Below, one piece after another: positions 2,474 through 51,060 of a stretch of DNA of 64,000 nucleotides. The notes below the pieces were generated by a model. It saw only the letters and a program-made list of their open reading frames with translations, did not search any database and had not been told where the DNA came from. Position 1 is the stretch's first letter. Every line of letters starts with the position of its first letter. The DNA is taken from contig CAXXVK010000030.1 of assembly GCA_963676915.2 (NCBI GenBank), forward strand, positions 1 to 64,000, in the 5' to 3' direction. Both the position numbers and the translations under genes were made by a program. The stretch comes from Myxococcota bacterium (GTDB lineage Bacteria > Myxococcota_A > SURF-8 > G963663525).

Positions 2474-4147
2474 TTAACGTTTCGTTTCGGTACGAGTCTG
2501 CAAATAGCTCTTCAACGACTGTACACCCGTTCGGAAATCTTCGAGCGTATAGGTCTTGCGCGGGTCGTTTTCCACGTAGGATTCAATCGCCGTAACCGTC
2601 TCATCGATACTTTCCTCCCAGGACATAGAGGAAACAAGTTGCTTTAAAGCAGCGGATTCACTTGCATAAATCGCTGCGCATTCCGCATCGTTCAGGCAAT
2701 GAGTCGGGATCACGCTAGACCCGGACGGCATCAACGAAAAACTCTCGAAACAACGATCCGTTCCCCAAGGAAGCATATGGAAGTATCCAGAAGCATCCGC
2801 ATGTAAATAGTAGTTATTACTTGCCATCGAATACCCATCTTCATGACCGATGAAATTCTCCACCGCCCATAGCCGAACCATTTCTTCAAGGTTCGCAACA
2901 GTGGCAATAGTGTCCATCCATTGATCATCCGAAGTTTGATTGATCGTCTGAATCAAAGCCGTCAGATCTTCTATATCCTCGGCATCTCCTTCATCCACTT
3001 CGAATTGAGTAGCCTGTCCCGAATAGAGATCCACACTTCCCTCGTAAAGATGCGCTGTGGACGCAAACATGCGATTGAGGAAAATATCGTCGTACTTTTC
3101 CAAAACGAGATACAAACCATACGGCTCATCATTTACACGAATCCAAGCGTAGCCGCTCAATGGTGCGGGCACGTCGAACGCTCGAAATACGCTGTAGGCC
3201 ATCGTTTCGTGCAGATTCGAGGGATCGTCGGTCATATTGTTCAACGTCATCGCTTTCAAACCGTGAAAACGCGCATCATCGTCGAATTCATCGAATTTGA
3301 TCTTGAAGGCCGCTTTTTCGGACAACGGCTTGAACGACAACCCGCTTTTCAGACGCACACCGACCGTCATTGTATCGTAGGTGACCCCGAATGCTTTCAT
3401 GGTAAAGGTAGCTTCAACGTACTCGAACGGGCTGTTTTCCAAGGCTTGTACAGAGGCATCCGGTAACGTGAGATCGATTTCGTGAACAGCGGTGGAGTCG
3501 AATAAAAACGCCGCTTCGCCTTCCGACACGGTATTGGTCTCCCCTTGGCTCGGCAGCGTTTCCCGCCACGACCCGGTGCTGTCCGGGTATCGTCCCCAGG
3601 TCGTTCCCGAAGTGGTATCGCCCACGGCGGCTTGGTCGATGATTTCTCCTGTATTATCCATCAAATAGATCGTATCGCCACCGCATTTGATTCCGAATGG
3701 CAATCCCGATTCTCCCTCGTCTTCATCTTCCTCTTTGATCACGAGGTATTCACCCGGTTTCAATGAAAGACCTTCGGCAAACGTATAGATATGCTCGGAA
3801 TCGTCAAGCACGTCCGTCAGGCTCCATCCCGATAAATCGGTCGTTTCCGTCCCTGGATTTACCAGCTCGATCCAATCCCGGCCATGGCAATCGATTTCAT
3901 TGAGCACCGCCGGCAGCCGTACGATTTCAGCCGGATCGACATCCAAGTCCCCGTTTTCCGAGCCGTTTTCGGTATCGCCGGTTCCGTTATCCTCACAACA
4001 GGGCGGGCAACCGTCGTCGCAGGCGACAAACAGCAAAATTGAGAGCAAAACAGTTACAAACCATGAAAATGCAGTCCCTGAAATTCCTGCGATTCGTAGT
4101 ACGATCATTGGTGCTATCATCCTAGATTGAGTTGATCCCATTGGCAT
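2474..4147 (-). CDS. Lipoprotein with lamin-tail domain (LTD) and CotH kinase domain
   Basis: FVA-C lipobox. LTD: LNEI..DWIELVNPG..DLSGWSLTD. CotH: KAAFKIKFD, LNNMTDDPSNLHE, YGLYLVLE, GHEDGY..NNYYL, LPWGTD. True start may be a downstream Met. Confidence 0.85.
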   Translation of the reverse strand: MPMGSTQSRMIAPMIVLRIAGISGTAFSWFVTVLLSILLFVACDDGCPPCCEDNGTGDTENGSENGDLDVDPAEIVRLPAVLNEIDCHGRDWIELVNPGTETTDLSGWSLTDVLDDSEHIYTFAEGLSLKPGEYLVIKEEDEDEGESGLPFGIKCGGDTIYLMDNTGEIIDQAAVGDTTSGTTWGRYPDSTGSWRETLPSQGETNTVSEGEAAFLFDSTAVHEIDLTLPDASVQALENSPFEYVEATFTMKAFGVTYDTMTVGVRLKSGLSFKPLSEKAAFKIKFDEFDDDARFHGLKAMTLNNMTDDPSNLHETMAYSVFRAFDVPAPLSGYAWIRVNDEPYGLYLVLEKYDDIFLNRMFASTAHLYEGSVDLYSGQATQFEVDEGDAEDIEDLTALIQTINQTSDDQWMDTIATVANLEEMVRLWAVENFIGHEDGYSMASNNYYLHADASGYFHMLPWGTDRCFESFSLMPSGSSVIPTHCLNDAECAAIYASESAALKQLVSSMSWEESIDETVTAIESYVENDPRKTYTLEDFRTGVQSLKSYLQTRTETKR

Positions 4148-4438
4148 TGGAAATTATTTCGTTTATTTAAAAATCATCATCCCCGCCCAAAAGATTACTT
4201 TATCAGAAATCGTTGAAAGAAAAGAACAAACTAGACGTTTTCGTCGCTGTATAGAATTCACAAGCCTTTTTCCCATCGCTCCGAAAGGCCATTCGGTTGG
4301 ATTATACCACCGAATGTGATAGTATTCACGAATACAAGCGTAGATGGGTCCAGCCTGCATAAGTCAAGCAGATTTCAGTCGGGGATATTGAACGGGGAAG
4401 CCGACACAGCGAGTGATTTTTTTCGGGGACGGGTGCCG

Positions 4439-5158
4439 ATGAAAAAGAAAACACATGTGGAAATACTTGAGAAACTCGTAATCCGGTATGGCATCAAAGA
4501 CGTGTTTTTTCAACGCGTTCTCGATGTCCTGACCGATGCGGATAAAATGCACGCCGACGAGTTTCTTAAAGATCTCATCGAAAAATACGGCGTCGAGGAC
4601 ACTCAACTTTGCGAGGTTCTTGCAGAAGTTTTCCATACCTCCGTCGTGGAATTGAACCGAGGCGAGTTATCCAAGGATATCATTGACCCAATCGGTTTCG
4701 ACATTTGTTACAAGTACAATTTGATTCCTTTCAAGATGGATCACGAATCGATTCATCTTGCCTGCTTCAATCCCGGCAATCTGGAAGCCGCCGATATCGT
4801 CCAGTCACTGACTCGCAAGAAACCGGTATTGGTTGCCTGCCCCTACGAGGAGGTGCGAAAAGCCATCGGTTCGATGTATCCGATGGAAACGGATTTATCC
4901 CATTATTTCGACAGGTTGGGCGTTTCTCGTGCCGAACTGGACAACAGCCTTTTGTCCCTTGAACAAAGGTTCTTGCAAGAAAACGAACCGGAGGAAGTTC
5001 AAGAAACAGAGGACGAATACGACGAACCCTACGATTACGAGGAAGATTCACCCGAAGAATCGACCGAAACCAAACCACCGGATCTCCCTCCACCGCTGCC
5101 GAATGCGGAAGAAAAAGAGAAACCCCGCCCATCGTTCGCCGTTTCATACAACGGATGA
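4439..5158 (+). CDS. GspE/PilB N-terminal (T2SSE_N-like) domain; probably the N-terminal part of the downstream protein
   Basis: LAEVFHTSVVEL...ICYKYNLIPF...IHLACFNPGNLEAADIV...EEVRKAI. Removing one C at 5123-5126 joins it to PIVRRFIQRMIVRA of the next ORF. Confidence 0.75.
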   Translation: MKKKTHVEILEKLVIRYGIKDVFFQRVLDVLTDADKMHADEFLKDLIEKYGVEDTQLCEVLAEVFHTSVVELNRGELSKDIIDPIGFDICYKYNLIPFKMDHESIHLACFNPGNLEAADIVQSLTRKKPVLVACPYEEVRKAIGSMYPMETDLSHYFDRLGVSRAELDNSLLSLEQRFLQENEPEEVQETEDEYDEPYDYEEDSPEESTETKPPDLPPPLPNAEEKEKPRPSFAVSYNG

Positions 5159-8100
5159 TCGTTCGAGCGGAAAGCGTACGAGCCGACGTGGTGGAATTCG
5201 TATTCACCGGAACCGCCGTGTTGATCCGTTACCGAATCGATGGTGTTTGGTTCGATGAACTGGTGCTCGCCCGGTACTTCCATCTCGTTTTCGGTGAGAC
5301 GATTCAATCGGTCTGCGGGCTAAAAATCCTTGATCCGGGTGACCACAGGCATGTCAGAATCGATACGGGAGAAAAGGAACATCTACAAGCTCGGTTATAT
5401 TATAACATCACCGATGACGGCTGGATGTACCGAATCAGTCTCCCCGATGTAAAAACGCAACTCAAGGATCTGCTGAAACTCGGCATCAGCCAATCCACGC
5501 TGAAACGCTACCGAAAAGCTTTCGAAACTCCGAAAGGAATGGTGATCGTCAGCGGTCCTCCGGGTAGCGGACGTACAACGACACTGTATGCAACGTTGCG
5601 GGAATTGAAGGAAAAAGGCAAAAAAATCGTCACCTTCGAGTCCCCGGCGAAACGAACTTTCAAAGGAATTACGCAACACGAAATTTCTAAGAAAAACCAA
5701 ATGGTTGAAGCTCTGGCGGAGGTCTTCAAATCCCCGCCGGATGTGCTGATGATATCCGACATCGACGACCCGGAAGTATTGGAACTAGCATTTCAGGCCG
5801 CCGAACAAGGCATGACGGTTCTCACTCGTGTAGAAGCCGAATCCGCTCCGAAAACCCTGGTTCACCTCGCCCAGAAAATGGAAATGCCGGTAGATAGGGT
5901 CGTAGAAGTCGTAAAAGGCGTACTCAGCCAACGATTGTTACGACGAAGCTGTCCCTATTGTTCGGAAGAAGTCGAGCCAACAGGAAAAGACAAAAAACTT
6001 CTGGCTTTGATGGGTCGCAGGAACATCCGAAAAATCACGGTAGAAAACGGCTGCGATTTCTGCCGCTGGGTGGGTCTTGCAGGACGTACCGGAGTTTTCG
6101 AGTTTTTACCCATCGCCGGACCGGTAGCCGAAATTTTCCGAAACGACCCGGAAGTAATTCCCCTTCGCCGGGAAATGAAAAAACGTGGCCTGAAACGGTT
6201 TATGGATTACGCCTACCTCAAAGCTTACGATGGCATAACCACCCTCGCTGAAGCTCAAAGGGTCGCAACTCCCGTTCCGAAATCCGAAAATGAATCCCCA
6301 AATTCCGATGCCCCCCTTCCCTTGTCAAAGGAAGTGCAAACCGTTTACGAAAGTGGTGCTGTTACCTCCATTGCACCGGTTTATAGGTTCCATCTAGCGC
6401 AACAACAGGGAGAATCATCGTTATCGGACAAACCCACAACGATTCGGAAGATCTCCGAAGCTCCTCCACTACTGACCGTGATTTACACCGGCGATCCTCA
6501 ACACCGAACCCAGGCACAAAAAGTTCTCGAAGGCGAATTGGATGAAAATGCCCCACCGGTGGAATTTCATCACGTATTGAATCTTTCGAACGGTGAGGTG
6601 GTTCTCAATCAGCTAGGTCAGTTGCGAGCGCTTCTTGCACCGAAACCGGTGGAAATTCCTTTAGCTGAACCGGAAGAAATTCCCTCGGAAACCGAAGAAC
6701 AGGAAGCTCCATCTAAAAGCTCTCATGATACCGACTTCGGTGAACCGGACGATTTCGACACTCAAAAGCGTAGAAAACCGAGTAAAGGTGTCAAACGAGG
6801 ACCACACACGCGGGCCTTGCACCTCGACCCAAACAACCCCGTAATGACGGCGGAAACCGTTACGGGAGCCATCGCTCAATCCTGCCTGAACTTTTTCACG
6901 AACGGGCAAAAGTACGCCAAGGGATTGATCGAACTGGTGATCTACGAAAACGCCACGCCGCTTTCGCTGATGTTCATTTTCACATTGGTTGGTTTGCTTC
7001 TGGAAGGCTTCGTTGCATCACGAGCCATCGAAGTTACGGTGGGACTGGGCTTTTCTCCGTTGACATTGCTGTTTCCCGTATTCCACCATTTGGATCTCGG
7101 CCTCCCGGATTGGATCGGCTACACACTGGGTTCGGGACTGGGATTGCTGCTGATTTCCATGGTTTTCTGGTTGACACTGAAATTGCTGGGAGACGAATTA
7201 CCGATCATGCTGTTGATCACCCTTGTGGGATTTCCCCGTGCGGTGATGATGCTCCCCATCGGCATCGTGGTACTGCTGTTGCAGTCCCAGCATGTTCCTC
7301 ACCTTGGATACATCGTGTTCCTTGTCGGTTTGATCGGCCTGTGGCGGATGATCGCCATGTTGCGGAGCTTTGCCTATCAGTTCAGCGAAGCCGTGATTCA
7401 CATCGTCTTGGTTCTCGGCATCTCGTGGACACTGTTCGGGGTAATTGTCGTGACGGACGAACGCATCGACTATAAAAACACCAAAGAATATCAAATTGTT
7501 GCCGCGTTTATTCAACAAATGTACGACCCGGACGGGTACCAAGCCAAACAGGAAAAGAAGACGATCGATCGCAAAAAGCTGGAACAAGCCATGCAGGTTC
7601 TGAACAACGAGGAAAAACAAAAGGAAGCCATCGAAAAACTCAAGAAGATGACCGAGCAGATCAAGAACCTCAAGGCTACCGAAATCCACGAGAACTATGA
7701 AGAAATCCTGGAGCAAGTAGGCACCAACGCTGCCGCATTGAACGCCTGCGAAACGATGCAGACCGACACGGGGATAATCAACGACATGACGGTACAAGTG
7801 TTGATGCGCCCCGAAAAAGCCAAGGAAATGACAAGCCTCGTTCAGGAAATGATTCAGGCAGGCGAGACGAAAAACCCCGAAGCTTTCGTGGAAGCGGACG
7901 AAAAACTCGAAGCGTTTTTGGAGGATTTCTCGGAAAACGAAGCAAAACAGGAAGATCTTGTGGTACAGGCTGCGATCCTCGGACCAGAGGAAAGCGACGA
8001 GGGAGAGCTTTTGCGCTATTCTCTGTCGCTTCAAAGCACGTCACCGAAGGTATCGCGCCCCGTCGTCTACTGGGATCTGGACTACAACGGAAAAAGCTTT

Positions 8101-8646
8101 CACCCGCACGAACAACACCAGCCGGAAGATGAACTCTCCATTCGTTGGCCGGATGATGGCGAATACCGTATCGCGGCTCGCGTGGGTGACGGTGTAAACG
8201 CCCTGAGTCCGGTTCTGGAAAAAACCGTTCGGATCAACAATGTACCTCCAACCATCCTGCCAACTCGGAAAAAATACATCCAGCAGGCTGGATCTTCCCT
8301 GCGCATCGAGAGTCGTGTGAACGATCCGGCGAACGAGCACGACACCTACGTTATCGAATACGATTTTGATTACGATGGTGGAACGTTCAAAGCCGATGAA
8401 TCTGTGGAAAATCACAATATTCTCAACCTGGACGGATCAAAACTTTCGGATGGAATACATGCCATCGCCATGCGCCCGAGAGACGAGGACTGCGGCTATG
8501 GAAATCTTGCGGTCGTGCAGGTTGCCAAGGGAGCCAAAGCGGCTCAAAGCTGTTCGGAAAACAAGGACCATTCTACGAGGGTGAAGATGTACGCCTTGAA
8601 GCCGACTACAGTCTGCCGGAGTTCGAGCAGGAACCTTATTCCGTGA
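5155..8646 (+). CDS. Degenerate GspE/PilB-type ATPase fused to multi-pass membrane domain, coiled coil and PKD-like repeats
   Basis: IRYRIDG, GMVIVSGPPGSGRTTTLY, SQRLLRRSCPYC..GCDFC..GRTGVFE, DGITTLAEAQRV, then about six hydrophobic segments, a coiled coil and WDLDYNG / YDFDYDG repeats. Confidence 0.8.
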   Translation: MIVRAESVRADVVEFVFTGTAVLIRYRIDGVWFDELVLARYFHLVFGETIQSVCGLKILDPGDHRHVRIDTGEKEHLQARLYYNITDDGWMYRISLPDVKTQLKDLLKLGISQSTLKRYRKAFETPKGMVIVSGPPGSGRTTTLYATLRELKEKGKKIVTFESPAKRTFKGITQHEISKKNQMVEALAEVFKSPPDVLMISDIDDPEVLELAFQAAEQGMTVLTRVEAESAPKTLVHLAQKMEMPVDRVVEVVKGVLSQRLLRRSCPYCSEEVEPTGKDKKLLALMGRRNIRKITVENGCDFCRWVGLAGRTGVFEFLPIAGPVAEIFRNDPEVIPLRREMKKRGLKRFMDYAYLKAYDGITTLAEAQRVATPVPKSENESPNSDAPLPLSKEVQTVYESGAVTSIAPVYRFHLAQQQGESSLSDKPTTIRKISEAPPLLTVIYTGDPQHRTQAQKVLEGELDENAPPVEFHHVLNLSNGEVVLNQLGQLRALLAPKPVEIPLAEPEEIPSETEEQEAPSKSSHDTDFGEPDDFDTQKRRKPSKGVKRGPHTRALHLDPNNPVMTAETVTGAIAQSCLNFFTNGQKYAKGLIELVIYENATPLSLMFIFTLVGLLLEGFVASRAIEVTVGLGFSPLTLLFPVFHHLDLGLPDWIGYTLGSGLGLLLISMVFWLTLKLLGDELPIMLLITLVGFPRAVMMLPIGIVVLLLQSQHVPHLGYIVFLVGLIGLWRMIAMLRSFAYQFSEAVIHIVLVLGISWTLFGVIVVTDERIDYKNTKEYQIVAAFIQQMYDPDGYQAKQEKKTIDRKKLEQAMQVLNNEEKQKEAIEKLKKMTEQIKNLKATEIHENYEEILEQVGTNAAALNACETMQTDTGIINDMTVQVLMRPEKAKEMTSLVQEMIQAGETKNPEAFVEADEKLEAFLEDFSENEAKQEDLVVQAAILGPEESDEGELLRYSLSLQSTSPKVSRPVVYWDLDYNGKSFHPHEQHQPEDELSIRWPDDGEYRIAARVGDGVNALSPVLEKTVRINNVPPTILPTRKKYIQQAGSSLRIESRVNDPANEHDTYVIEYDFDYDGGTFKADESVENHNILNLDGSKLSDGIHAIAMRPRDEDCGYGNLAVVQVAKGAKAAQSCSENKDHSTRVKMYALKPTTVCRSSSRNLIP

Positions 8647-9110
8647 AATGGGACTTGAATTACAAAAAGAAGAAATTCAACACGGATCGTCTGGTCACCA
8701 ACGAGACCTCGCTGATCGTGCGTTTTCCCGATGAAGGTACATACACGCTGGCCTATCAACCGAAACGGCAGGGCGTCGAAAAGAGAAAAGAGATTCCGAT
8801 CACGGTTCAGGTACTCAATCGGCCTCCTAGCGCCAAACTGACGCCGGACTTCGTCAAAGTACTTCCCAGGAAAAAGCTGGTACTGCTTGCCGAATGCCAA
8901 GATCCTGGTGAAGGCGACCGCATCGCACAATACCAATGGGATACGAATTACGACGGTCAAAATTTCAAAGCCAGGAAAAAAGGAAAGAATATCACAAGCT
9001 TGGAGATTCAAGCCCCATTATCTGGAACTCTGCGAGTCGCAATGCGCTGTGTAGATAACGATAAAGGAATCGGCAAAGAAGCCGTGACGTTGATCAAAGT
9101 TGTAGAGTAA
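8643..9110 (+). CDS. PKD-like repeat protein; probably the C-terminus of the upstream fusion (frame break ~8529-8547)
   Basis: KWDLNY...FPDEGTYT...VLNRPPSA and YQWDTNYDG...CVDNDKG match upstream repeats. The frame is open upstream as KLFGKQGPFYEGEDVRLEADY. Confidence 0.7.
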   Translation: MKWDLNYKKKKFNTDRLVTNETSLIVRFPDEGTYTLAYQPKRQGVEKRKEIPITVQVLNRPPSAKLTPDFVKVLPRKKLVLLAECQDPGEGDRIAQYQWDTNYDGQNFKARKKGKNITSLEIQAPLSGTLRVAMRCVDNDKGIGKEAVTLIKVVE

Positions 9111-9133
9111 ACTCGAAAAAACGCAGTCATTGA

Positions 9134-9260
9134 AATGTGCACAAGGCAATCAAGCCCAGGATCTCAGCAGGAGTAAAGTATATATTTAAAGAAGGTGTGG
9201 TGTGCCTTTTTTGCATAGAGTGCTGGGCTAAAAACGGGGCTTGATTGCCTTGTGCACATT
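9134..9260. repeat. 127-bp element bounded by perfect 24-bp inverted repeats
   Basis: AATGTGCACAAGGCAATCAAGCCC (9134-9157) and its exact reverse complement (9237-9260), 79-bp spacer, between convergent genes. Confidence 0.85.
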
Positions 9261-9503
9261 CCGTGGGCTCGTTTTTCAAAGAAGCTCTTATCTGTTACAG
9301 TTTCATCTTAATGCCCGTTTCACTTTTGTCAATGATCGAAAAGTCACCTCGCCACGTTTCTTCCGTTTATTCACAATACTTCGTGTAATTCTACGGAAAC
9401 GGGGGCGGGAGTTTTCTAGGAAATCACCGAGCGAAGAATCCCCCAATCCAGTTGTTTTCTTTATGGAAATTGCTAGAAAACCATTTGGAGATACAGGACT
9501 TTT

Positions 9504-10577
9504 TCAGCGTTTGCTTTTGATTTTTTTGACCTGCTTACGCAACCGACCCATTTTTTTGCCACTGGATTTGGATTGCATTTTTCCAGCCAGGGTCTGCTTT
9601 CGAGCCAGTCGCGCCATTTCGTCACGCTGCTTTTTGTAGTTGTTCACGCGAGCGGCATCCAGTTTGCCGTTTTCTACCGCTTCCCTAACGGCACAACCCG
9701 GTTCTTCGTCGTGTAGGCAATCGCGGAATTTGCACAACTGAGCCACTTCCTCAACATCCTCGAAAGCCTGCTGAAGCCCTTCGTCATCCACCCAGAGTTG
9801 GATTTCCCGCAACCCCGGAGTATCGACCACCATGGCTCCATTCTGCAAGAGGATCAATTCCCGGTGGGTGGTCGTATGGCGACCTTTACCGTCCTCTTCG
9901 CGTATTTCTCCCGTCCGCTGGCGCTCCGTACCAAGAAGGCGGTTGATCAGAGTAGACTTGCCGACACCGGAAGAACCAAGAAATACAACGGTATCTCCGG
10001 CTTTTAAGTACGAATTCAGAGTATCGATTCCATTGCCGGTTCGAGCACTCACGGCATGAACGTCCACACCTGGAGCGACATCTTCGACTTCCGCCAAAAA
10101 AGCTTCCGCATCCTCGCATAGATCCATTTTATTCAGAACAACCACCGGGCGGGCGCCGCTTTCCCAGGCCAAGGTAAGATAACGCTCGATACGTCGAAGG
10201 TTGTATTCGCGATCCAACGCCGATACAAGAAACACGGTTTCGATGTTCGCGGCAACGACTTGTTCTTCATCCGCTTTTCCGGCTTCTTTGCGTGAAAATG
10301 AACTGAAACGAGGCAAAACAGCGTGAATCTGCGCGGTATGGTCTGCATCCGAACGTTCGATGACAACCCAGTCACCTACACGGGGGTAGTCGGCGCGACA
10401 AGTAGCTTCGTGACGGAATTTCCCCGTGACTTCAGCCAACCATTCGCCTTTGGTATCTCGCAATCGGTAGTACCCGCGATCCTCTCGAACGATACGCGCC
10501 GGAACCCATCCGAACTCCCGGTATTCGGCGTAATACGCTTCGAAAACCGGTTTCCAGCCTAGTTGCTCAAGATCCAT
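9504..10577 (-). CDS. rsgA: Ribosome small subunit-dependent GTPase A
   Basis: VGDWV, NKMD, GSSGVGKSTLIN, GRHTTT, DTPGLRE and Zn site CKFRDCLHDEEPGC. Confidence 0.97.
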   Translation of the reverse strand: MDLEQLGWKPVFEAYYAEYREFGWVPARIVREDRGYYRLRDTKGEWLAEVTGKFRHEATCRADYPRVGDWVVIERSDADHTAQIHAVLPRFSSFSRKEAGKADEEQVVAANIETVFLVSALDREYNLRRIERYLTLAWESGARPVVVLNKMDLCEDAEAFLAEVEDVAPGVDVHAVSARTGNGIDTLNSYLKAGDTVVFLGSSGVGKSTLINRLLGTERQRTGEIREEDGKGRHTTTHRELILLQNGAMVVDTPGLREIQLWVDDEGLQQAFEDVEEVAQLCKFRDCLHDEEPGCAVREAVENGKLDAARVNNYKKQRDEMARLARKQTLAGKMQSKSSGKKMGRLRKQVKKIKSKR

Positions 10578-20217: not shown

Positions 20218-22207
20218 ATGGGTATCGCTACGGATATCATCCTTCTGATCGTCGCCGCCTTCGCCTGTGGCGTGGTGCTTCAAAAACTGGGGCAACCGTT
20301 GATCTTGGGATACATCGCCGCCGGATTCCTATTGGGACCGCATTCGGGAGGATTGACGGTCTCCAACACCCACGACATAGAACTTCTTTCCGAAATCGGC
20401 GTCGCTTTGCTGCTGTTCGCGTTGGGACTGGAGTTTTCGCTCAAAGATCTTCAGCCGGTAAAAAAAATAGCCCTTATCGGTACGCCGATCCAAATGGGTT
20501 TGACAATCGTTCTGGGATACGGAATCGGTACGGCCATAGGTCTGGAATGGACGCATGCCCTATGGCTAGGCGCGCTGATTTCGCTGTCGAGCACGATGGT
20601 GATTCTGAAAACCCTCATGAATCAGGGCTGGTTGGGAACATTGTCCAGCAAAGTGATGATCGGAATGCTGATCGTGCAGGATCTCGCCGTCATCCCACTA
20701 ATGATCATTCTTCCTCAGATGAGCGATCCCGGCGTAGGGTTGTCGGCATTGGGTATCGCCGTGGTGAAAGCGGCAGGATTTCTCGTGGGCATGATTCTAC
20801 TCGGCACTCGCCTGCTTCCGAAATTAATGGCCTATATCGCCCCGTCTCGGTTCCCGAGAATTGTTTTTACTGGCGATTACCGCGATCGGTTTGGGTATCG
20901 GCTATATCACGCATGTGGCGGGCTTGTCGTTCGCTTTCGGAGCCTTCGTGGCGGGTATGGTCTTGAGCGAATCCGATTTCGGACACCAAGCGTTGAGTGA
21001 CATCATCCCCCTTCGCGACTTGTTTGGGCTTTTGTTTTTCGCTTCCGTGGGAATGCTGCTCGATCCCGTTTTTCTGGTGAACCACATCCAACTGGTCTTG
21101 TTGCTGTTTTTGGCGATCAGTGTAGGTAAAGGGCTGATTTTTGCCTTTCTGGCCAGGGTTTTCCATTACGGAAACGTGATCCCTCTGGCCGTGGGATTGG
21201 GAATGTTCCAAGTCGGCGAATTCTCCTTTGTTCTTGCCAAGGTAGGCGTTTCCACCGGATCGATCGACAACGAACTGTATTCGCTCATGCTGACCACCGC
21301 GATTTTTTCCATGGCGTTGACACCGATGATTTCCGGCCAGACGGCCCGCCTTTACAAATTGAAAAAGCGTTTGTTCGACCATGAGGAGTTGGACACCCAC
21401 AACATACCCGAAGCCGGTCTGCACGATCATGTTGTCATCGCCGGAGGCGGAAAAGACGGTCTCCAGGTAGCTCGCGCCTTGAAAAAAACCGGCATTGTTT
21501 CGGTGATTGTGGAAATCGATCAAAGAAAGCTGGAACGCTACAAAACCGAAGAATTACCGGTCGTTTACGGAGATGCGGGAAACGAAATCGTACTGGAAGC
21601 GGCGAACATCGAAAGCGCACGACTGCTGGTTGTGACCGCCCAGGATATGGTTGCCGCACGGGAAATGATCGTTCATGCAAAGCGCATGAATCCTGACCTC
21701 GAAATCCTGGTCAAAGCATCCGATTCGGGGTTCCTTCCGGTTTTCGAGGAAATCGGAGCAAGCGGCGTGGTGCTGCCTGAATTCGAAACCGGACTGGAAC
21801 TGATTCGACAAGCATTGTTGCATTATCGGGTTCCGGTACCGGAAATCCAACGGCAGGCCGAGTCGATGCGCTGCGAGCTGTTCTCTCCGTTTCTTAAATC
21901 CAACGAAGGATACAGGACACTCCATCAACTGAGCAGCGCCGAAAGGCAATTCGAATTGCATTGGGTCTTTTTGGACGATGGAAGTGCTTTGACTCGTCGT
22001 TCGTTGAAAGAATCCGACGTACGCAACCGCACAGGGGCTTCCGTGGTTGCGGTATTGCGCAAAGAAACCCTTACGACAAACCCGGACGCGGATTTCCAGT
22101 TGGAAGCCGGGGATCACGTGGCGATTATCGGGACGGACACCGCCCACCGGGATTTTCTGGAATTGGCTCATTCCGTGGAGCTTGTAGGAGATCTCTCCGA
22201 AGCCTAG
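20218..22207 (+). CDS. CPA2-family cation:proton antiporter (Kef/YbaL-like) with TrkA-N and TrkA-C domains; one extra base at ~20840-20843
   Basis: [56 protein letters not shown]. Removing one C joins the two ORFs as [13 protein letters not shown]. Confidence 0.9.
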
Positions 22208-28443: not shown

Positions 28444-30324
28444 ATGAATCGCAAGCCTAAAATGACTCCCCGTATGGAAGACTGGAAAACCCATTATCGC
28501 GACCAGATTCTTTCCTCTCATGACGCCGTGAAAGCCGTAAAACCCGGCCATCGCGTGTTTCTCGGCACCGGTTGCGCCCAACCCAATTCCCTCGTGCAGT
28601 CGCTCACGGACCGACACGCGGAACTCAATGATGTGGAACTGATTCAGCTTTTCACGATGGGCGAAGCTCCCTACGCCGACAAAAAAATGATAGACCACTT
28701 CAAGGTCAACACGTTTTTCGTCAGCCGCAACGTTCGTAATCTGGTCAAAGAAGGATTCGGAAGTTATACTCCGATTTTCTTGAGCGACATCCCCAAACTG
28801 TTCGCTTCCGGTGAAATGCCGATCGATGTCTCTTTGATCCAGGTTTCACCTCCCGACGAACGAGGCATGTGCAGTCTTGGTGTTTCGGTCGATATCGTCA
28901 GAGCTGCCGTGGAAAACTCCCGGCTGGTCATCGCCGAAGTCAACGAGCAAATGCCCCGCACTCATGGTGATAGCCTGATCAACATTTACGATCTCGATCA
29001 CCTCGTGCCGGTCAATTCCCCGTTGATCGAATACGATTCCCAGGAGCCTACTCAGGAATCTCAGAAAATCGGCGAATACATCGCAGCGCTCGTAGAAAGC
29101 GGCTCGACGGTGGAACTGGGAATCGGCCTGATTCCCCAGGCTTCGCTCGACCATTTCAAAGGAAAATCCAACCTTGGCATTCATACCGAAATGCTGAGCG
29201 ATTCCATTATCGACCTGATTGAATCGGGCGTGGTCAACGGCTCGCGGAAATCCATGGACCCCGGCAAAGTCGTTGCAAGTTTCTGTATGGGCACGAAAAA
29301 ACTGTACGAATACATCGATGACAACCCGATGTTCAGCTTCCGTCCCACGGAATACGTCAACGATCCGTTCACCATCGCTCGTCAGACCAAAATGGTTGCC
29401 ATCAACACGTCGATGGAAGTGGATCTCACCGGTCAGGTCTGTGCCGATTCGGTCGGTCCGAAATTCTATTCCGGCATCGGCGGCCAGGTGGACTTCAACC
29501 GGGGCGCGACACAATCCCCGGGCGGCAAAGCGATCATCGCCCTTCCCTCTACCGCAAACAACGGCGAAGTATCTAGAATCGTTACACATTTAAGCCCCGG
29601 CTCCGGTGTTGTCACCACCCGAGGCGATGTGCATTACGTCGTCACCGAATATGGCACCGCTTACCTCCATGGTAAGAGCATTCAGGGTCGCGCACTGGCG
29701 TTGATCAGCATTTCGCACCCCAAATTCCGTGCGCAATTGATCAAAGAAGCCATCGAAGCCAAGTACCTGATGCCGGATATGGCCGCCGTGCAAGGCAAAA
29801 TGTTCGTCGAACCGCCTGGACTGCGTGCTTCAATGATCATGGAAGACGGCACGCCGATCAAGTTCCGCCCAATTCACCCCACGGATGAACCTCGGATGCG
29901 CGAACTGTTCTACGCTCTGAGCGAAAGCACGATTTACTATCGTTTCGGCAGCCATATGAAGAAACTGCCGCAGAAACAGATCCAGGATTTTGTGTATATC
30001 GACCACCGCAACGAAGTCTCCATCGTCGGCACCATTCCAGAGGCCCACGGCGAGGAAATCGTTGCCATGGGATGCTACTATCTCGATACCAAGAACAACC
30101 GGGCCGAGGTGGCGTTGGTCACTCGCGATCCCTGGCAGAATCGCGGTATCGGAACGTTCCTGCTGAAGACATTGGCCCGAATCGCACGTCGAAACGGCAT
30201 TCGCGGACTGACTGCGCAGATCCATTTCCAGAACAAAATCATGCAGAATCTGATGTACAAGATCGGCGCGAAAGTCAAAAGCGAATTGAAAGACGGAGTG
30301 TACGGAATTACGGTAGACTTTTAA
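28444..30324 (+). CDS. Acetyl-CoA hydrolase/CoA-transferase fused to C-terminal GNAT domain
   Basis: VSPPD, LGIHTEM, EVDLTGQ, SGIGGQVDF, VVTEYG, ISHPKFR. GNAT: FRPIHPTD...AEVALV..WQNRGIGT. Confidence 0.9.
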   Translation: MNRKPKMTPRMEDWKTHYRDQILSSHDAVKAVKPGHRVFLGTGCAQPNSLVQSLTDRHAELNDVELIQLFTMGEAPYADKKMIDHFKVNTFFVSRNVRNLVKEGFGSYTPIFLSDIPKLFASGEMPIDVSLIQVSPPDERGMCSLGVSVDIVRAAVENSRLVIAEVNEQMPRTHGDSLINIYDLDHLVPVNSPLIEYDSQEPTQESQKIGEYIAALVESGSTVELGIGLIPQASLDHFKGKSNLGIHTEMLSDSIIDLIESGVVNGSRKSMDPGKVVASFCMGTKKLYEYIDDNPMFSFRPTEYVNDPFTIARQTKMVAINTSMEVDLTGQVCADSVGPKFYSGIGGQVDFNRGATQSPGGKAIIALPSTANNGEVSRIVTHLSPGSGVVTTRGDVHYVVTEYGTAYLHGKSIQGRALALISISHPKFRAQLIKEAIEAKYLMPDMAAVQGKMFVEPPGLRASMIMEDGTPIKFRPIHPTDEPRMRELFYALSESTIYYRFGSHMKKLPQKQIQDFVYIDHRNEVSIVGTIPEAHGEEIVAMGCYYLDTKNNRAEVALVTRDPWQNRGIGTFLLKTLARIARRNGIRGLTAQIHFQNKIMQNLMYKIGAKVKSELKDGVYGITVDF

Positions 30325-30359
30325 TTGAAAAAAGCGGCTTCTCCCCTCGGAAACTTTCC

Positions 30360-30412
30360 TTGACAGAGGGGAGAAGCTTGGCTAAATTGTCGATGAATGA
30401 CCATTCATTCAT
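30360..30412 (+). promoter_or_regulatory. Sigma70 promoter plus FadR(TetR)-type operator for the beta-oxidation operon
   Basis: TTGACA-17 bp-TAAATT (30360-30388), then palindrome ATGAATGA-CCAT-TCATTCAT (30393-30412). Confidence 0.75.
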
Positions 30413-30529
30413 TTTGTTCACGTAACGGCGAATATCATTGATGACCCGGCGGCCATCGCTCGGGTCTTTCGTTTGTATTCGCTCATTGTGCAAGACGAAC
30501 CTTACTCGCACTACAACAAGGAGGTATCG

Positions 30530-32917
30530 ATGGCAAGACAGATCAAAAAGGTAGCCGTCCTGGGCGCCGGTGTAATGGGTGCCGGGATAGCCGCCCAACT
30601 CACCAATTACGGGATTCCTGTCTACCTGCTTGATATCGTCCCGCCGAAACTGACGGACGAAGAAAAGCAGATTCCAGCGAAGCGCAACGCTTTCGCGGCA
30701 GGCGCCGTAATGAAGATGAAAAAGATGAAACGGCCTCCGGTGGCGTTCTACGTCCCCGAAAACGCCAACCTCGTCACCGTCGGTAACTTCGACGATGATC
30801 TGGAAAAAATCGCCGAATGCGATTGGATCATCGAAGTAGTCGTGGAAAATCTGCAAATCAAGCAGAGCCTTTTCGAAAAAATCGAAAAGTTCCGCAAGCC
30901 CGGTACGATCATCAGCTCGAACACCTCGGGTATCGCCATCAACAAGATGGTCGAGGGACGCTCTGACGATTTCAAGAAAAACTTCTGCGTCACTCACTTC
31001 TTCAATCCTCCTTACTTCATGAAGCTTTTGGAAATGGTTCCCGGCGTGGACACCGATCCCGAAGTCATGAAAGACCTGGCGGAATTCGGCGAGACGACCC
31101 TCGGCAAAGGCATTGTCTGGGCCAAGGACACCCCCAACTTCGTCGCCAACCGCATCGGTGTGGCGGGTATCGCTTCGACCTTCAAGCACATGGTCGAAGG
31201 TGAATACACCATCGCCGAAGTCGACGCCGTCACCGGCAAAGTTTCGGGCGCGGCCATGCCGACGTTCAAAACCACCGACCTCGTGGGTCTGGACACCATT
31301 CATCACATCATCACCAACAGCTACGATCAACTCGAAGATGATGAAACCCGCGAAGATCTGAAAGTTCCCGAATGGCTGGCCAAGTTGATCGACAACGGCT
31401 GCCTCGGCACCAAGACCCGTAAAGGTTTCTACAAAAAAGAAGGCAAAAAGAAACTCGTTTGGGATTGGAAAGCGATGGAGTACGTCGAGCTTGAAAAAGT
31501 CAAGAACGACACCATCAAAAAAGCCAAAAACACCGACGATCCGGCTGAAAAAGCCAAAACTCTCATCGGTGCCGACGATCGCCTGAGCCAACTGGCGTGG
31601 AAACTGTTCGTAGACAACTGCCTGTATTCGGCACGCCGCCTGGGCGAAATCTGCGACGACATCATGCAGATCGACAACGGCATGAAATGGGGCTACAACC
31701 GTGAAAACGGCCCGTTCGAAGCCTGGGATCTCGTGGGTGTGAAAGAAAGCGTCGAGCGCATGAAAGCCGACGGCTACGAAATTCCCGCCGTCGTCGAAAC
31801 CATGCTCGAAAAGAGCGACGGAAGCTGGTACAAATCCGAGGGTGGAAAACTCTACTTCTGGGATTTCCGTGAGGAAAAATACGCTCCCGTACCGACCAAA
31901 GCCCATTGGTTCAACCTGAAACTGATGCGCGAAGACGGCAAAGTCGTCAAAGAAAACAGCGGTGCTTCGCTGATCGACATGGGCGACGGCGTACTCTGCT
32001 GCGAGTTCCACACCAAAATGAACGCCATCGACGACGACATCATCAAGATGCTGCTCGAAGGTTGCGACATGCTCGACGCTTCCGATAAATGGGAAGGCAT
32101 GGTCGTGGCCAACCAGGGAGAGAACTTCTCCGTGGGCGCGAACCTGATGATGATCATGATGCTCGCGATGGGCAAAGACTTCGATAACATCAAGCTGGCC
32201 GTCGAAGGTCTGCACGAAGCCAGCAAACGGCTGCGCTACTGCTCCAAGCCTACGGTTTCCGCGCCCTTCGGCATGGTCCTGGGTGGTGGTTGCGAAGTGC
32301 TGATGGCTACCGACGCGGTGTGCGCGCACTCCCTGAGCTGGATCGGTCTCGTCGAAATCGGCGCCGGCCTGATCCCCGGTGGTGGTGGTAACCTCGGTCT
32401 GCTGACCCGCTGGTTGGAAAACATCCCGGCATCTGCAGCCGTGGACCGCTTCCCCTACATCCAGAAAACCTTCGAAACCATCGCGATGGCTACGGTTTCC
32501 AACACGGCCGAACATGCCCGCGACCTCAAATTCCTGCGCATGTCCGACCGCATCGTCGCCAACCGTGACGACCTCATCGGCACCGCCAAGAAGATGGTTC
32601 TCGGAATGGCCACCGCCGGTTATCAACCGAAGCTGCCGCCGAACAACCTGATCCTCCCCGGCCGTCCCGGATACTCCACCTTCGAGATGGGCCTTTACAA
32701 CATGGGTCTCGGCCTGTTCGTCACCGAGCACGAAGTCAAGATCGCCAAGAAACTGGCGAACGTCCTGACCGGCGGCGACATCGAACCGAACACGGCCGTG
32801 AGCGAAGACTACCTGCTCGAACTCGAAACGGAAGCCTTCATGAGCCTCGTCGGAGAGCCGAAGTCCATCGAACGTATGCAGTCCCTGCTGACCACCGGCA
32901 AGCCGCTGCGCAACTAG
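30530..32917 (+). CDS. 3-hydroxyacyl-CoA dehydrogenase / enoyl-CoA hydratase (FadN-type domain order)
   Basis: VAVLGAGVMG, EVVVE, SSNTSG, HFFNPP, PNFVANRIG; crotonase domain NFSVGANL, GGGCE, GLVEIGAGLIPGGGG. AAGGAGG RBS. Confidence 0.93.
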   Translation: MARQIKKVAVLGAGVMGAGIAAQLTNYGIPVYLLDIVPPKLTDEEKQIPAKRNAFAAGAVMKMKKMKRPPVAFYVPENANLVTVGNFDDDLEKIAECDWIIEVVVENLQIKQSLFEKIEKFRKPGTIISSNTSGIAINKMVEGRSDDFKKNFCVTHFFNPPYFMKLLEMVPGVDTDPEVMKDLAEFGETTLGKGIVWAKDTPNFVANRIGVAGIASTFKHMVEGEYTIAEVDAVTGKVSGAAMPTFKTTDLVGLDTIHHIITNSYDQLEDDETREDLKVPEWLAKLIDNGCLGTKTRKGFYKKEGKKKLVWDWKAMEYVELEKVKNDTIKKAKNTDDPAEKAKTLIGADDRLSQLAWKLFVDNCLYSARRLGEICDDIMQIDNGMKWGYNRENGPFEAWDLVGVKESVERMKADGYEIPAVVETMLEKSDGSWYKSEGGKLYFWDFREEKYAPVPTKAHWFNLKLMREDGKVVKENSGASLIDMGDGVLCCEFHTKMNAIDDDIIKMLLEGCDMLDASDKWEGMVVANQGENFSVGANLMMIMMLAMGKDFDNIKLAVEGLHEASKRLRYCSKPTVSAPFGMVLGGGCEVLMATDAVCAHSLSWIGLVEIGAGLIPGGGGNLGLLTRWLENIPASAAVDRFPYIQKTFETIAMATVSNTAEHARDLKFLRMSDRIVANRDDLIGTAKKMVLGMATAGYQPKLPPNNLILPGRPGYSTFEMGLYNMGLGLFVTEHEVKIAKKLANVLTGGDIEPNTAVSEDYLLELETEAFMSLVGEPKSIERMQSLLTTGKPLRN

Positions 32918-32982: not shown

Positions 32983-34162
32983 ATGAGAAAAGCCGTTATC
33001 GTAGCCGCGAAGCGCACGCCGATCGGTCGCGCCAAACGAGGCACGCTGATTTACACCCGCCCCGAATCGATGGGTAAAGTGGTCATCCAGAAGATCCTCG
33101 AAGTAACCGGTGTCAAAGGTGAAGAAATCGACGACTTGGTCGTTGGTTGCGCCATGCCGGAAGCCGAGCAGGGCATGAACATCGCCCGCATGGTCGGCCT
33201 GCACGCCGGTCTGCCGGATCGCGTTCCTGCCGTGACCGTCAACCGCTTCTGCTCTTCCGGACTCGAAACCATCGCCATGGCCGCGACCCGCGTTGTGGCC
33301 GGATACCAGGACATCGTTCTGGCCGGTGGCGTCGAAACCATGTCCATGATCCCCATGGGCGGCAACAAGATCGTCGGCCATCCCGACATCACCGCCGATT
33401 CTCACCAGATCGAAGGCTACTGCTCGATGGGTAACACCGCCGAGCACGTCGTACAGCGCTACGGTGAAGAATTCAACCTGACCCGTGAAGAAATGGACCG
33501 CTTTGGTCTGGAATCCAACCTCAAAGCCGCTGCCGCCATCAAGGCCGGTAAGTTTGATGAGGAAATCGTTCCGATGCCGTACACCACCTGGAAAAACGGC
33601 AAAAAGATCGAAGGCGTCTTCAAGATGGACGAAGGCCCCCGCCCGAACTCCACCATGGAAGGCATGGCCAAACTGCGTCCCGCGTTCAAGGTGAAAGGTT
33701 CCGTCACGGCGGCCAACTCTTCCCAGATGAACGACGGCGCGGCTTTCGCGTTGATCATGTCCGAAGAAGAAGCCAACAAACGTGGCTTGGAAATCCTGGC
33801 CTACTTCCGTAACTACCAGGTCGAAGGTGTCCGCCCCGACGAAATGGGTGTCGGACCTGCGGCCGCGATTCCGAAGCTGTTGGCCAAAGAAGGTCTGACC
33901 GTGGACGACATCGACGTGTTCGAACTGAACGAAGCTTTCGCCAGCCAGGCGATTGTACAGCATGCGCAAACTCGGTATCGACCCGAAGAAGGTCAACCCG
34001 AACGGCGGCGCCATCGCTTTGGGCCACCCGCTGGGCTGCACCGGCGCGAAGCTGACCACCCAGATCGTGCACGAAATGAAGCGCGAAGGTCACAAGCTGG
34101 GTATCGTTTCCATGTGCATCGGCGGCGGCATGGGCGCTGCGGGACTGTTTGAACGCCCCTAA
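32983..34162 (+). CDS. Acetyl-CoA C-acyltransferase (thiolase); one extra base at ~33950-33953
   Basis: [24 protein letters not shown]; the other frame continues [26 protein letters not shown]. Confidence 0.92.
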
Positions 34163-44215: not shown

Positions 44216-44512
44216 GCCATCTCCTTATGATCCACTAAAATTCGTCATAGAAGTTACTTGGCCTCATTGAATCGATTCTCCCACCTTTTGGCAAGATTTT
44301 TCGGGAAAACGTCCGAAAAAGCGGCATTTTCAAGAAGATAGCGCTCCATTTCACGAAAACATCCAACGTTTTCATGGAGAAGAGTCTTGATAGCTCTTGT
44401 CGTATAGTATAAATTCAATCAAGAGTACGTCCAATGTATATGCATGGCGTTCATCCGTCCATTTGTCGGAATTCGCCAGTTGCTGCAATGATAGCTATCA
44501 AGGGAGGTTTCG

Positions 44513-50500: not shown

Positions 50501-51060
50501 GGTTCATCTGTCAACGTGCCGGTGGATTGCCTGAACCTGTGTATGGCGACATCGTGATTTCAGAAATCATGATCGATCCCGACTCACCCTACACAACCGA
50601 TTACCCTTATGAATGGCTCGAAATCCACAACATCTCCGATCATGCCTTGAATCTCGATGGCTGCACCATACAAGCCGGCACGTCGGAAGTGGATATCGAT
50701 GAGGTTTCGATCGTCAACCAGGACGCCTATTTCGTGCTGGGACAAGGATACACGGAGAACGGTGGATACACGGCTGATTTCAGTTATGGCGAATCGTTGC
50801 TCTTCGACAACCAATCCGGACGTATTGCCATCAAATGTTCGAATACCACCATCGATGAAGTCACTTACAACGTCCTGTTCCCGCTCAACGAAGGATACTC
50901 GATCGGCCTTATTCCCGATCCCACCCTTCACACACCACAGGGGAACGATCAGGCATCTTCGTGGTGCAACAGTAGTATCATGTATGGTGGAACCATCGGC
51001 GACACCGCAGATCCACCCAACTACGGAACTCCGGGTGAAGCGACTTACTGCCAACCCTGA
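44513..51060 (+). CDS. Giant (~2,180 aa) surface lipoprotein: ZU5-like, 3 laminin-EGF-like, 6 lamin-tail, 2 C-type lectin and OB-fold-like modules; two frame breaks
   Basis: VSA-C lipobox. ORFs 44513-46237, 46032-47315 and 47107-51060 join by removing one A at 46217-46218 and one A at 47163-47165. Six G(E/D)xxx(T/S)E...W(C)...G(T/S)P LTD units; WIGLND and WVGVHD lectin motifs. Confidence 0.8.
45176..45596 (+). repeat. Three tandem 144-bp repeats encoding laminin-type EGF-like units
   Basis: Units start at 45176, 45320 and 45464: CDPDPCNGHG(T/S)CD..DGSCTC..Y.GDACD.C.....G.YPDC. Confidence 0.92.

Follow-up and report, generated by a model that had tools for sequence, protein, structure and literature searches.

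A candidate membrane-anchored PilB/GspE-fold protein with degenerate catalytic motifs and PKD-like repeats in a Myxococcota bacterium

We analysed a window of 64,000 nucleotides, the first 64,000 positions of contig CAXXVK010000030.1 (forward strand) in the Myxococcota bacterium assembly GCA_963676915.2, and concentrated on the gene at 4439-9110 on its plus strand. This is a single gene spread over three reading frames, with a joined length of about 1557 residues, and its product is ordered as an MshEN domain, a PilB/GspE-type ATPase fold, a poorly modelled linker, a membrane module, a helical stalk and four PKD-like immunoglobulin (Ig) domains. A first-pass annotation of the window had described a single gene in need of frame repair, of about 1,550 residues, and this description holds: the gene is colinear with its orthologue P0002, an unbroken protein of 1561 residues.

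The gene starts at the ATG at 4439, the first 26 residues of its product being near-identical to the N-terminus of P0002, and its last frame is closed by a TAA at 9108-9110. Comparison of P0002 with the window by tblastn gave three colinear main segments on the plus strand, in which residues 1-223 match 4439-5119 in frame 2 (61% identical), residues 231-1374 match 5119-8547 in frame 1 (65% identical) and residues 1368-1561 match 8526-9107 in frame 3 (76% identical). Internal stops are absent from all three, and the long segment aligns with just 5 gap columns in 1146. Two weaker tblastn matches of P0002 come from PKD repeats aligning to one another.

The list of open reading frames (ORFs) gives this stretch as 4316-5158, 5155-8646 and 8643-9110, all on the plus strand and overlapping by 4 bases at each junction, and start-stop overlaps of this kind (ATGA at 5155-5158, GTGA at 8643-8646) could be taken as the mark of three translationally coupled genes; two programmed -1 frameshifts would be another way to read through the same junctions. 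However, homology to P0002 in the new frame runs upstream of both putative starts. It begins 12 codons 5' of the ATG at 5155, in a stretch of frame 1 that forms the conserved first helix of the ATPase N-lobe (PIVRRFIQRMIVRAE), and again 39 codons (8526-8642) 5' of the GTG at 8643, within the third Ig-like repeat, so that splitting the gene there would cut a conserved helix and a beta-sandwich repeat. Moreover, P0002 is unbroken and needs no shift, and by inspection no in-phase X XXY YYZ slippery heptamer lies at either site. Coupled genes and programmed frameshifting were both rejected on these grounds, and we regard them as very improbable. Considering the homology upstream of both apparent starts together with the colinearity with P0002, the comparison indicates that 4439-9110 is one gene and not three.

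A chimeric assembly joining an unrelated ATPase to a membrane protein, which the first-pass annotation had named as an outcome that would overturn its reading, would also produce such an architecture. Nothing beyond general assembly noise speaks for a chimera here. On the contrary, P0002 lies on a different contig, of 1.36 Mb, and has all the domains in the same order in one frame, at 65% identity, so that the architecture recurs in an independent protein, and base composition is even along the whole gene. We consider a misassembled junction extremely improbable.

The first segment (4439-5119, plus strand) carries an MshEN/T2SSE_N domain followed by an acidic proline-rich linker. The Pfam match to MshEN (PF05157; 4640-4891) covers residues 68-151 of the segment at 48.8 bits, against a cut-off of 23.1 (E 7.2e-13). 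At 5125-6279 on the same strand follows the PilB/GspE-type ATPase fold, with its N2D and CTD lobes and degenerate motifs, which matched T2SSE (PF00437) at 165.5 bits against a cut-off of 24.9 (E 1.8e-48) over profile positions 8-370 of 370. Both results agree with the T2SSE_N-like domain and the ATPase body read at the first pass. The equivalog level was missed in NCBIfam, where the GspE model TIGR02533 scored 190.2 bits versus the required 630.25 and the PilB model TIGR02538 scored 174.8 versus 675.65. Among PDB sequence matches of the ATPase part, the top eight rows were PilB or GspE proteins (E 4e-36 to 2.6e-34). An AlphaFold2 (AF2) model of this part, residues 1-385 of the frame-1 translation, reached values of 79-98 in the predicted local distance difference test (pLDDT), and the two-lobed N2D and CTD fold is present in it: Foldseek aligned the model with Geobacter PilB (5tsh_E, template modelling score (TM-score) 0.87, E 1.4e-34), Thermus PilF (5oiu_B, 0.89) and Vibrio EpsE (1p9r, 0.78). 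Self-association of this fold was tried by predicting a complex of a pair of 1-385 chains, which yielded no answer (score 0.00, mark 0.42) and speaks neither for nor against it.

The next region, 6280-6879 on the plus strand (about 200 residues), holds a linker, a middle block of about 120 residues that is conserved in P0002, and a second linker that is first acidic and then basic, as the acidic linker of the earlier description would have it. Its AF2 pLDDT is mostly below 50 and no Pfam family matched it. A degenerate receiver domain was considered for this region (residues 386-585 of the frame-1 translation) and rejected for want of support, as a receiver profile built from 31 PilB-receiver fusion proteins scored -0.7 bits on the window and on P0002.

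The membrane module (6880-7464, plus strand) consists of five long hydrophobic helices and one that is short and weak. The identification of this module as Yip1 (PF04893) had to be dropped, since Pfam gave no such match even at E up to 10; the family search returned sub-threshold DUF6057 alone, at 9.8 bits in the window, 19.1 in P0002 and 11.5 in P0051, a relative described below, against a cut-off of 29.8. The module is followed at 7465-7968 (plus strand) by a stalk of about 170 residues rich in Lys and Glu. Long helices were indeed modelled by AF2 after the membrane part, as the earlier reading of a coiled coil implies, and the coiled coil itself stays putative.

The four PKD-like repeats close the protein. 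Repeats 1 and 2 (7969-8547, plus strand) have the cores WDLDY and YDFDY; repeats 3 and 4, located by tblastn and motif search in the third segment (8550-9110, plus strand), have WDLNY and WDTNY, with a Cys pair in repeat 4. A regular-expression search for [WY]D.[DN]Y thus recovered the core in 4 of 4 repeats, as had been noted. Repeats 1 and 2, which are the ones that were modelled, form beta-sandwiches with pLDDT 75-85 and were matched by Foldseek to tandem Ig/FN3-like modules (E 2.6e-09 and weaker). In Pfam the window's own repeats lie under every PKD cut-off, the best being a K319L-like PKD match in the third segment at 15.6 bits (cut-off 27), while homologous repeats in P0051 (34.7 bits) and in a further relative, P0195 (27.2 bits), reach PKD_4 (cut-off 27).

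We read the catalytic motifs of the ATPase part against PilB structures and 35 T2SSE homologues, nearly all of them canonical, and each of the four alterations described at the first pass was borne out. Walker A (5554-5580, plus strand, as are the motifs that follow) reads GPPGSGRTT, with Arg for the Lys of the canonical GSGKTT, and GLPGSGRTT in P0002. The Asp box (5635-5652) reads FESPAK, that is ESPAK where EDPVE is canonical, and YEHPVK (EHPVK) in P0002. In the Walker B region (5734-5769) the window has PPDVLMISDIDD and P0002 has PPDVLMLSDIDD, both of the form PPD...SDIDD in place of DPDxxxVGEIRD, with Asp for the catalytic Glu. Finally, the His box (5821-5847) is LTRVEAESA, with Glu for the His of STLHTNDA, and LARMKAESA in P0002. 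The orthologue therefore carries replacements at the same catalytic positions, and homologues with intact motifs, which would have spoken against the first-pass reading, are not what its full-length relative shows. The N-lobe motifs ASDIHxEP and PQDGR are likewise altered. Other elements are retained as described: the tetracysteine zinc module (5950-6063) is complete, with CPYC at 5950-5961 and CDFC at 6052-6063, its Cys columns being invariant or at least 90% conserved in the alignment, and GRTGVFE is kept too.

The MshEN domain is also modified. The available text of PMC12943098 gives its cyclic di-GMP (c-di-GMP) motif as two copies of RLGxxL..G......L...L..Q, with pivotal Arg and Gln. In the window protein FLK is aligned to the RLG of PilB at the second motif, in line with the lack of an RLG motif reported at the first pass. 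Reading by eye, the candidate for the first motif has I-L-E for R-L-G and neither candidate ends in Gln.

We then compared 207 ATPase segments, namely that of the window and those of 190 hit proteins, each covering more than 250 of the 385 query positions (P0001, identical to the window product, was omitted). All four key residues were kept in 195 of the 207 and at least one was missing in 12; all four were lost in only 4, which are the window, P0002, P0046 and P0136_2, one half of P0136. The degeneracy is therefore a rare derived state shared by the window protein and P0002. As for the other two, P0046 (663 residues) is a PilB-receiver fusion in which none of the four residues is kept and whose His box RVEAET resembles that of the window, and P0136 (739 residues) contains two degenerate PilB-like units; degenerate PilB-like proteins therefore occur in several lineages.

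The four T2SSE catalytic signatures are needed for hydrolysis, and we infer from their replacement that the PilB-like domain is no longer a motor and has lost catalysis. A different explanation of the same motifs would be that the protein is a working but unorthodox membrane-tethered ATPase of the PilB type, using Arg in Walker A and Asp in Walker B to drive some envelope process through its own membrane module. The P-loop glycines, the Thr-Thr pair, the zinc module, GRTGVFE and the overall fold are all kept, and the altered motifs are conserved between the orthologues, as if they were still chemically active. Against this, four signatures that are present together in 195 of the 207 related segments changed at once, and the alterations extend to the N-lobe. 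We hold an active enzyme of this kind to be quite unlikely.

Domain by domain, identities were calculated for one protein pair, the window product and P0002. The ATPase core is 74% identical with 0 gap columns, and its N-lobe is 60% identical; MshEN reaches 70%, the middle block of about 120 residues 61%, the membrane module 77%, the stalk 65%, PKD repeats 1 and 2 63% and 57%, and repeats 3-4 (8550-9107) 79%. On the contrary, the two linkers are only 30% and 40% identical and provide a yardstick of relaxed sequence. The core is about as conserved as the membrane and PKD parts and far above the linkers, therefore by this yardstick the dead ATPase core is under constraint and not decaying, which answers the objection, anticipated at the first pass, that purifying selection on the ATPase part might be missing.

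The two frame breaks themselves require an explanation. Break 1 is a -1 shift from frame 2 to frame 1 at 5119-5127 (plus strand), where the alignment with P0002 switches frame amid A5, A3, C4 and C3 homopolymer runs. Break 2 is a -1 shift from frame 1 to frame 3 at 8526-8550 (plus strand), within repeat 3, where the alignment switches between AKAAQ and LFGKQGPFYEGEDV. The positions proposed before, 5123-5126 and 8529-8547, are essentially right, and both breaks fall among short homopolymer runs.

At least 3 further genes of the window are frame-broken. A kefB/kefC-like gene (Na_H_Exchanger, TrkA_N and TrkA_C; 20218-22207, plus strand) is split near 20840-20870, with Pfam profile positions 2-189 in the ORF at 20218-21000 and 209-372 in the ORF at 20861-22207. 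A thiolase gene (32983-34159, plus strand), downstream of a fadB-like gene, shifts frame near 33940-33980, Thiolase_C matching in frame 1 over positions 2-62 and in frame 2 (33929-34159) over positions 54-122. In addition, three long overlapping ORFs in three frames at 44495-51060 (plus strand), which match laminin-type EGF, C-type lectin and, three times, the Lamin Tail Domain (LTD), have the look of a single giant gene for a surface protein, with breaks near 46230 and 47180; Pfam backs the first junction alone, and weakly (LTD, E 0.0013). The Lon gene of the window is in one frame and colinear with a 95%-identical relative, which comes from a longer contig; other Lon matches lie at about 70% identity, and those from Thermodesulfobacteriota or 'Deltaproteobacteria' metagenome-assembled genomes at about 60%. 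Considering that ordinary conserved genes are broken as well, the assembly is noisy and the two breaks studied here are probable indel errors. It follows that gene calls in an assembly with frequent frame breaks, such as the three ORFs here, are not to be trusted as given.

The gene is thus most probably intact in the organism, the two -1 breaks in 4439-9110 being most likely assembly indels. The competing possibility is that the breaks are real and that the locus is a recent pseudogene, or is expressed only in shortened form (as MshEN by itself and as a protein ending after repeat 2), P0002 being the only functional one of the two orthologues. Two independent -1 breaks do exceed the break density of the window: the four inferred elsewhere in about 59 kb predict about 0.3 for a gene of 4.7 kb, and by our own arithmetic the probability of at least two is about 0.04. 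The thiolase break, moreover, lies outside any homopolymer. It also fits a damaged gene that the window product was found in the protein collection only as a middle piece of 1163 residues (P0001), and that no intact copy closer than 65% identity was found, though the 95%-identical relative of Lon exists. On the other side, no other sign of decay accompanies the breaks, given the lack of in-frame stops, the few gap columns of the long segment and the identities of 57-79% across domains; housekeeping-type genes (thiolase, kefB-like) are broken likewise, as expected of assembly noise, and the homopolymer setting of both breaks points the same way. We consider real damage possible but rather unlikely, and proceed with an intact gene.

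We also looked at the topology of the membrane module. Hydropathy over an alignment of four homologues gave five strongly hydrophobic segments and one that is weak and short, and in two AF2 models there are five long helices, the weak segment being a helix of 11-12 residues. The figure of about six transmembrane segments given at the first pass is therefore sound for five, the sixth being doubtful. At the N-terminus there is no signal-like segment, and the sequence before the first span is strongly basic, which places the PilB-like part in the cytoplasm; if the short helix does not span, the spans number five and the stalk and the repeats are outside. PKD domains are usually extracytoplasmic. 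The C-terminal flank of the module is net negative in 3 of 3 sequences. The Cys pair of repeat 4 (AECQD ... MRCVD) recurs in each of the 4 family members (window, P0002, P0051, P0195) despite identities of 25-29% between the two subgroups, at a site where Ig domains may often carry a disulfide. Five spans with the stalk and Ig repeats outside the cytoplasm (N-in, C-out) is thus the probable topology on these models. With regard to the periplasmic Ig-like domains proposed earlier, the odd number of spans, the negative flank and the Cys pair all fit, short of proof. The membrane loops carry few charges, however, and the membrane part of both AF2 models is of low confidence (pLDDT 26-72), which leaves some probability to a six-span model with both ends in the cytoplasm.

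Relatives of the full-length protein are few. Of 7,999 candidates scored in a word-indexed protein search with the middle piece as query, 46 reached E <=0.001. Two of these, P0001, which is the window's own product, and P0002, cover over 90% of the query, and the other matches are confined to the ATPase part, with at most 36% of the query covered. HMMER, run exhaustively on 1.84 billion cluster representatives that stand in for about 15 billion proteins, returned 25,966 at E <=0.001, nearly all of them again matching in the ATPase part alone. Among the best 150 of these, the only matches in the C-terminal half besides P0001 were P0051 (745 residues), which shares the membrane-stalk-PKD module over query residues 586-1122, and P0057, a PKD-only protein of 2400 residues. 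When a profile of the C-terminal module was searched, 3 of 8,000 candidates matched: P0051, P0195 (1088 residues, 78% identical to P0051) and a PKD protein of a Pirellulales metagenome-assembled genome. In the GTDB set (one genome per species), a first scan matched 123 stretches with 0 family members confirmed, and a second matched 52 with 1 confirmed, the PKD-only match L001 in a giant surface protein from Phycisphaerae. This is a very rare family, and conclusions about it rest on few sequences.

P0195 and P0051 have the same membrane module, helical stalk, four PKD-like repeats and repeat-4 Cys pair as the window protein, at 25-29% identity to the copies in the window and P0002, but they lack T2SSE. 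The head of P0195 is about 340 residues long, with two similar units of about 45 residues in residues 1-110, then a low-complexity linker of about 230 residues, and no Pfam family matched it at E up to 0.05. On the ATPase side, FastTree on the 207 rows grouped the window and P0002 with P0063 and P0071 (Shimodaira-Hasegawa-like support 97). A quick IQ-TREE run on 60 rows (9 degenerate plus 51 canonical ones, without P0136 and P0061) recovered the window with P0002 at 100 in the approximate likelihood ratio test (SH-aLRT), their union with (P0063, P0071) at 99 and the addition of P0062, a canonical PilB-receiver fusion with intact motifs, at 96. P0063 (569 residues) and P0071 (608 residues) are MshEN and T2SSE proteins with an N-terminus like that of the window and a C-terminal signature of the type EYAY[IL]KA in common with it. 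Both have lost the Walker B Glu, as in the window, and P0063 has lost the His-box His too; unlike the window protein, both retain Lys in Walker A, and neither has a membrane module, a stalk or PKD repeats.

The occurrence of the parts as separate genes, which had been set against the first-pass reading, was thus observed to some extent: P0195 and P0051 carry the module without the ATPase, and P0063 and P0071 are soluble. With a module found without the ATPase and soluble closest relatives of the ATPase, the fusion is lineage-specific. A canonical PilB lineage near P0062 may have given rise to soluble degenerate paralogues such as P0063 and P0071, one of which would then have been fused to a pre-existing membrane-stalk-PKD module.

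The best-scoring hits included a further group of PilB-like proteins, P0003, P0004 and P0047-P0061 (about 980-1050 residues), each with two stretches that match the T2SSE query. P0003 and P0004 contain complete tandem T2SSE ATPase units in one chain. In P0061 the first unit is without the Walker A Lys and one Asp-box residue, and the rest of the tandem group was not flagged as degenerate.

The gene is flanked upstream by a divergent minus-strand gene (2474-4147) whose product joins a CotH kinase domain with a Lamin Tail Domain, and downstream by a convergent minus-strand gene for RsgA. Beginning 24 nucleotides after the stop codon, a perfect inverted repeat of 24 nucleotides (9134-9157 and 9237-9260, with a spacer of 79) forms a hairpin at 9134-9260 that is unique in the window, with a folding energy of -76.7 kcal/mol and z = -7.2, and that may be either terminator-like or a small palindromic element. 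The only Rfam match in 4000-9600 was a sub-threshold one to a microRNA precursor, on this hairpin, and a scan of 4100-9550 for consensus promoters and terminators gave nothing above shuffle expectation. A role in anti-phage defence was tried and rejected: PADLOC gave a single weak P-loop match (mad8, 19.6 bits) and none on the other pieces, the CotH neighbour or P0195.

More widely, eukaryote-like or surface domains abound in the window (LTD, EGF_laminin, Lectin_C, LVIVD, PD40, P_proprotein). An open frame of 807 residues at 30308-32731 on the minus strand has no family match and is antisense to the fadB-like gene (3HCDH and ECH; 30473-32917, plus strand); it is most likely a shadow ORF. No platform, pilin or secretin families of pili or type II secretion systems (T2SS) were found in the 37 ORFs of the window scanned with Pfam or the 11 scanned with NCBIfam, mostly of at least 150 residues, in accordance with the earlier remark that no such genes adjoin this one.

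Putting these results together, the MshEN domain, without its c-di-GMP motif, and the two-lobed ATPase-like domain would lie in the cytoplasm, a polytopic membrane module with probably five spans would carry the chain across the membrane, and the helical stalk with its four PKD-like Ig domains would stand outside. The PilB-like domain would then serve as a structural or binding module, or at most as a nucleotide-binding switch through what remains of the P-loop. A dead PilB-like domain would in this way be held at the membrane and mechanically linked to a ligand-binding or adhesive arm facing the envelope, which may bind an envelope component or an external ligand. Considering that such a domain would naturally share its partners with PilB and GspE, its most likely role would be that of a scaffold or regulator of a type IV filament machine, engaging platform proteins, a tether of the PilM/GspL type or the real motor. 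Signalling independent of hydrolysis, as the PilB of Myxococcus xanthus can perform, would be an alternative.

Taken as a whole, we lean, by a small measure, towards an intact gene for a membrane-anchored, catalytically degenerate protein of the PilB/GspE fold that has an extracytoplasmic Ig arm and acts as a scaffold or regulator. Several points weigh against it besides the density of frame breaks and the span count. There are only two full-length sequences, and their conservation is one pairwise comparison at the protein level. Catalytic loss was read from motifs only, and with Arg in Walker A and Asp for Glu the protein might still bind nucleotide or turn it over slowly. Long branches affect the tree position next to P0063 and P0071, and P0071 and P0046 were flagged by the tree tool. 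No partner genes for a PilB-like protein were found among the ORFs scanned, and the link to pilus or secretion machinery is pure inference. A more specific version, in which the protein is an outside-in receptor with a dead PilB ring as its cytoplasmic output, and an envelope or external ligand of the PKD arm alters, by way of the stalk and membrane module, the occupancy by the pseudo-ATPase of the docking site of a type IV pilus (T4P) or T2SS platform, or its mixing into the motor hexamer, seems to us unlikely; were it true, filament assembly would be gated without a second messenger, and a pseudo-motor anchored in the membrane would be a kind of regulation new to type IV filament machines.

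What makes the architecture worth attention is that a PilB fold without its catalytic residues forms part of a membrane protein with an Ig-like arm, and that the dead core is conserved. Such a protein would be a pseudoenzyme derived in nature from a secretion motor. As a regulator or scaffold of a filament machine it would offer a handle on the control of the motor docking site; if its role is unrelated, the fold has been reused for a non-motor job. The architecture, which belongs to the T2SSE superfamily by fold and profile, is rare, conserved and apparently undescribed. The full-text literature that was searched, with subscription journals lying outside it, gave nothing on membrane-anchored or degenerate PilB/GspE proteins, and a term search of the accessible text of a 2024 review on PilB (PMC11656802) gave 0 occurrences of "transmembrane", the word "degenerate" there concerning GGDEF/EAL domains. 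Such a protein would surprise a specialist, and its two full-length sequences both come from uncultured sources.

In the usual view, PilB and GspE motors are soluble and active hexamers that partner proteins bring to the membrane, where they dock on PilC/PilM or GspF/GspL. The window protein has in common with them the MshEN domain, the N2D/CTD fold (TM-score 0.87-0.89), the zinc module and the GR.G..E element, but in contrast to them the Walker A Lys, the Asp box, the Walker B Glu and the His-box His are all replaced, and one covalent chain links the domain to a polytopic membrane module, a stalk and PKD domains. A known arrangement of a similar kind is the GspE-GspL complex (4pht), which is among the fold matches of the ATPase part and in which a PilB/GspE-type domain sits at the inner membrane face, linked to a periplasmic part, as we propose here. 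There, however, a separate bitopic protein provides the tether for an active ATPase, whereas the window protein would have a covalent polytopic tether and dead motifs, so that the likeness is one of principle only. A non-hydrolysing RecA-like partner that modulates the ATPase of a type IV filament motor is known in ArlH/FlaH of the archaellum, which belongs to a different family (KaiC-like) and is not known to be membrane-anchored. Finally, the available text of PMC5544727 reports that M. xanthus PilB regulates exopolysaccharide production independently of ATP hydrolysis, and a PilB acting as a signalling intermediary without hydrolysis would be a precedent for the window protein, although M. 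xanthus PilB is canonical, soluble and active and has c-di-GMP motifs, features that the window protein does not share.

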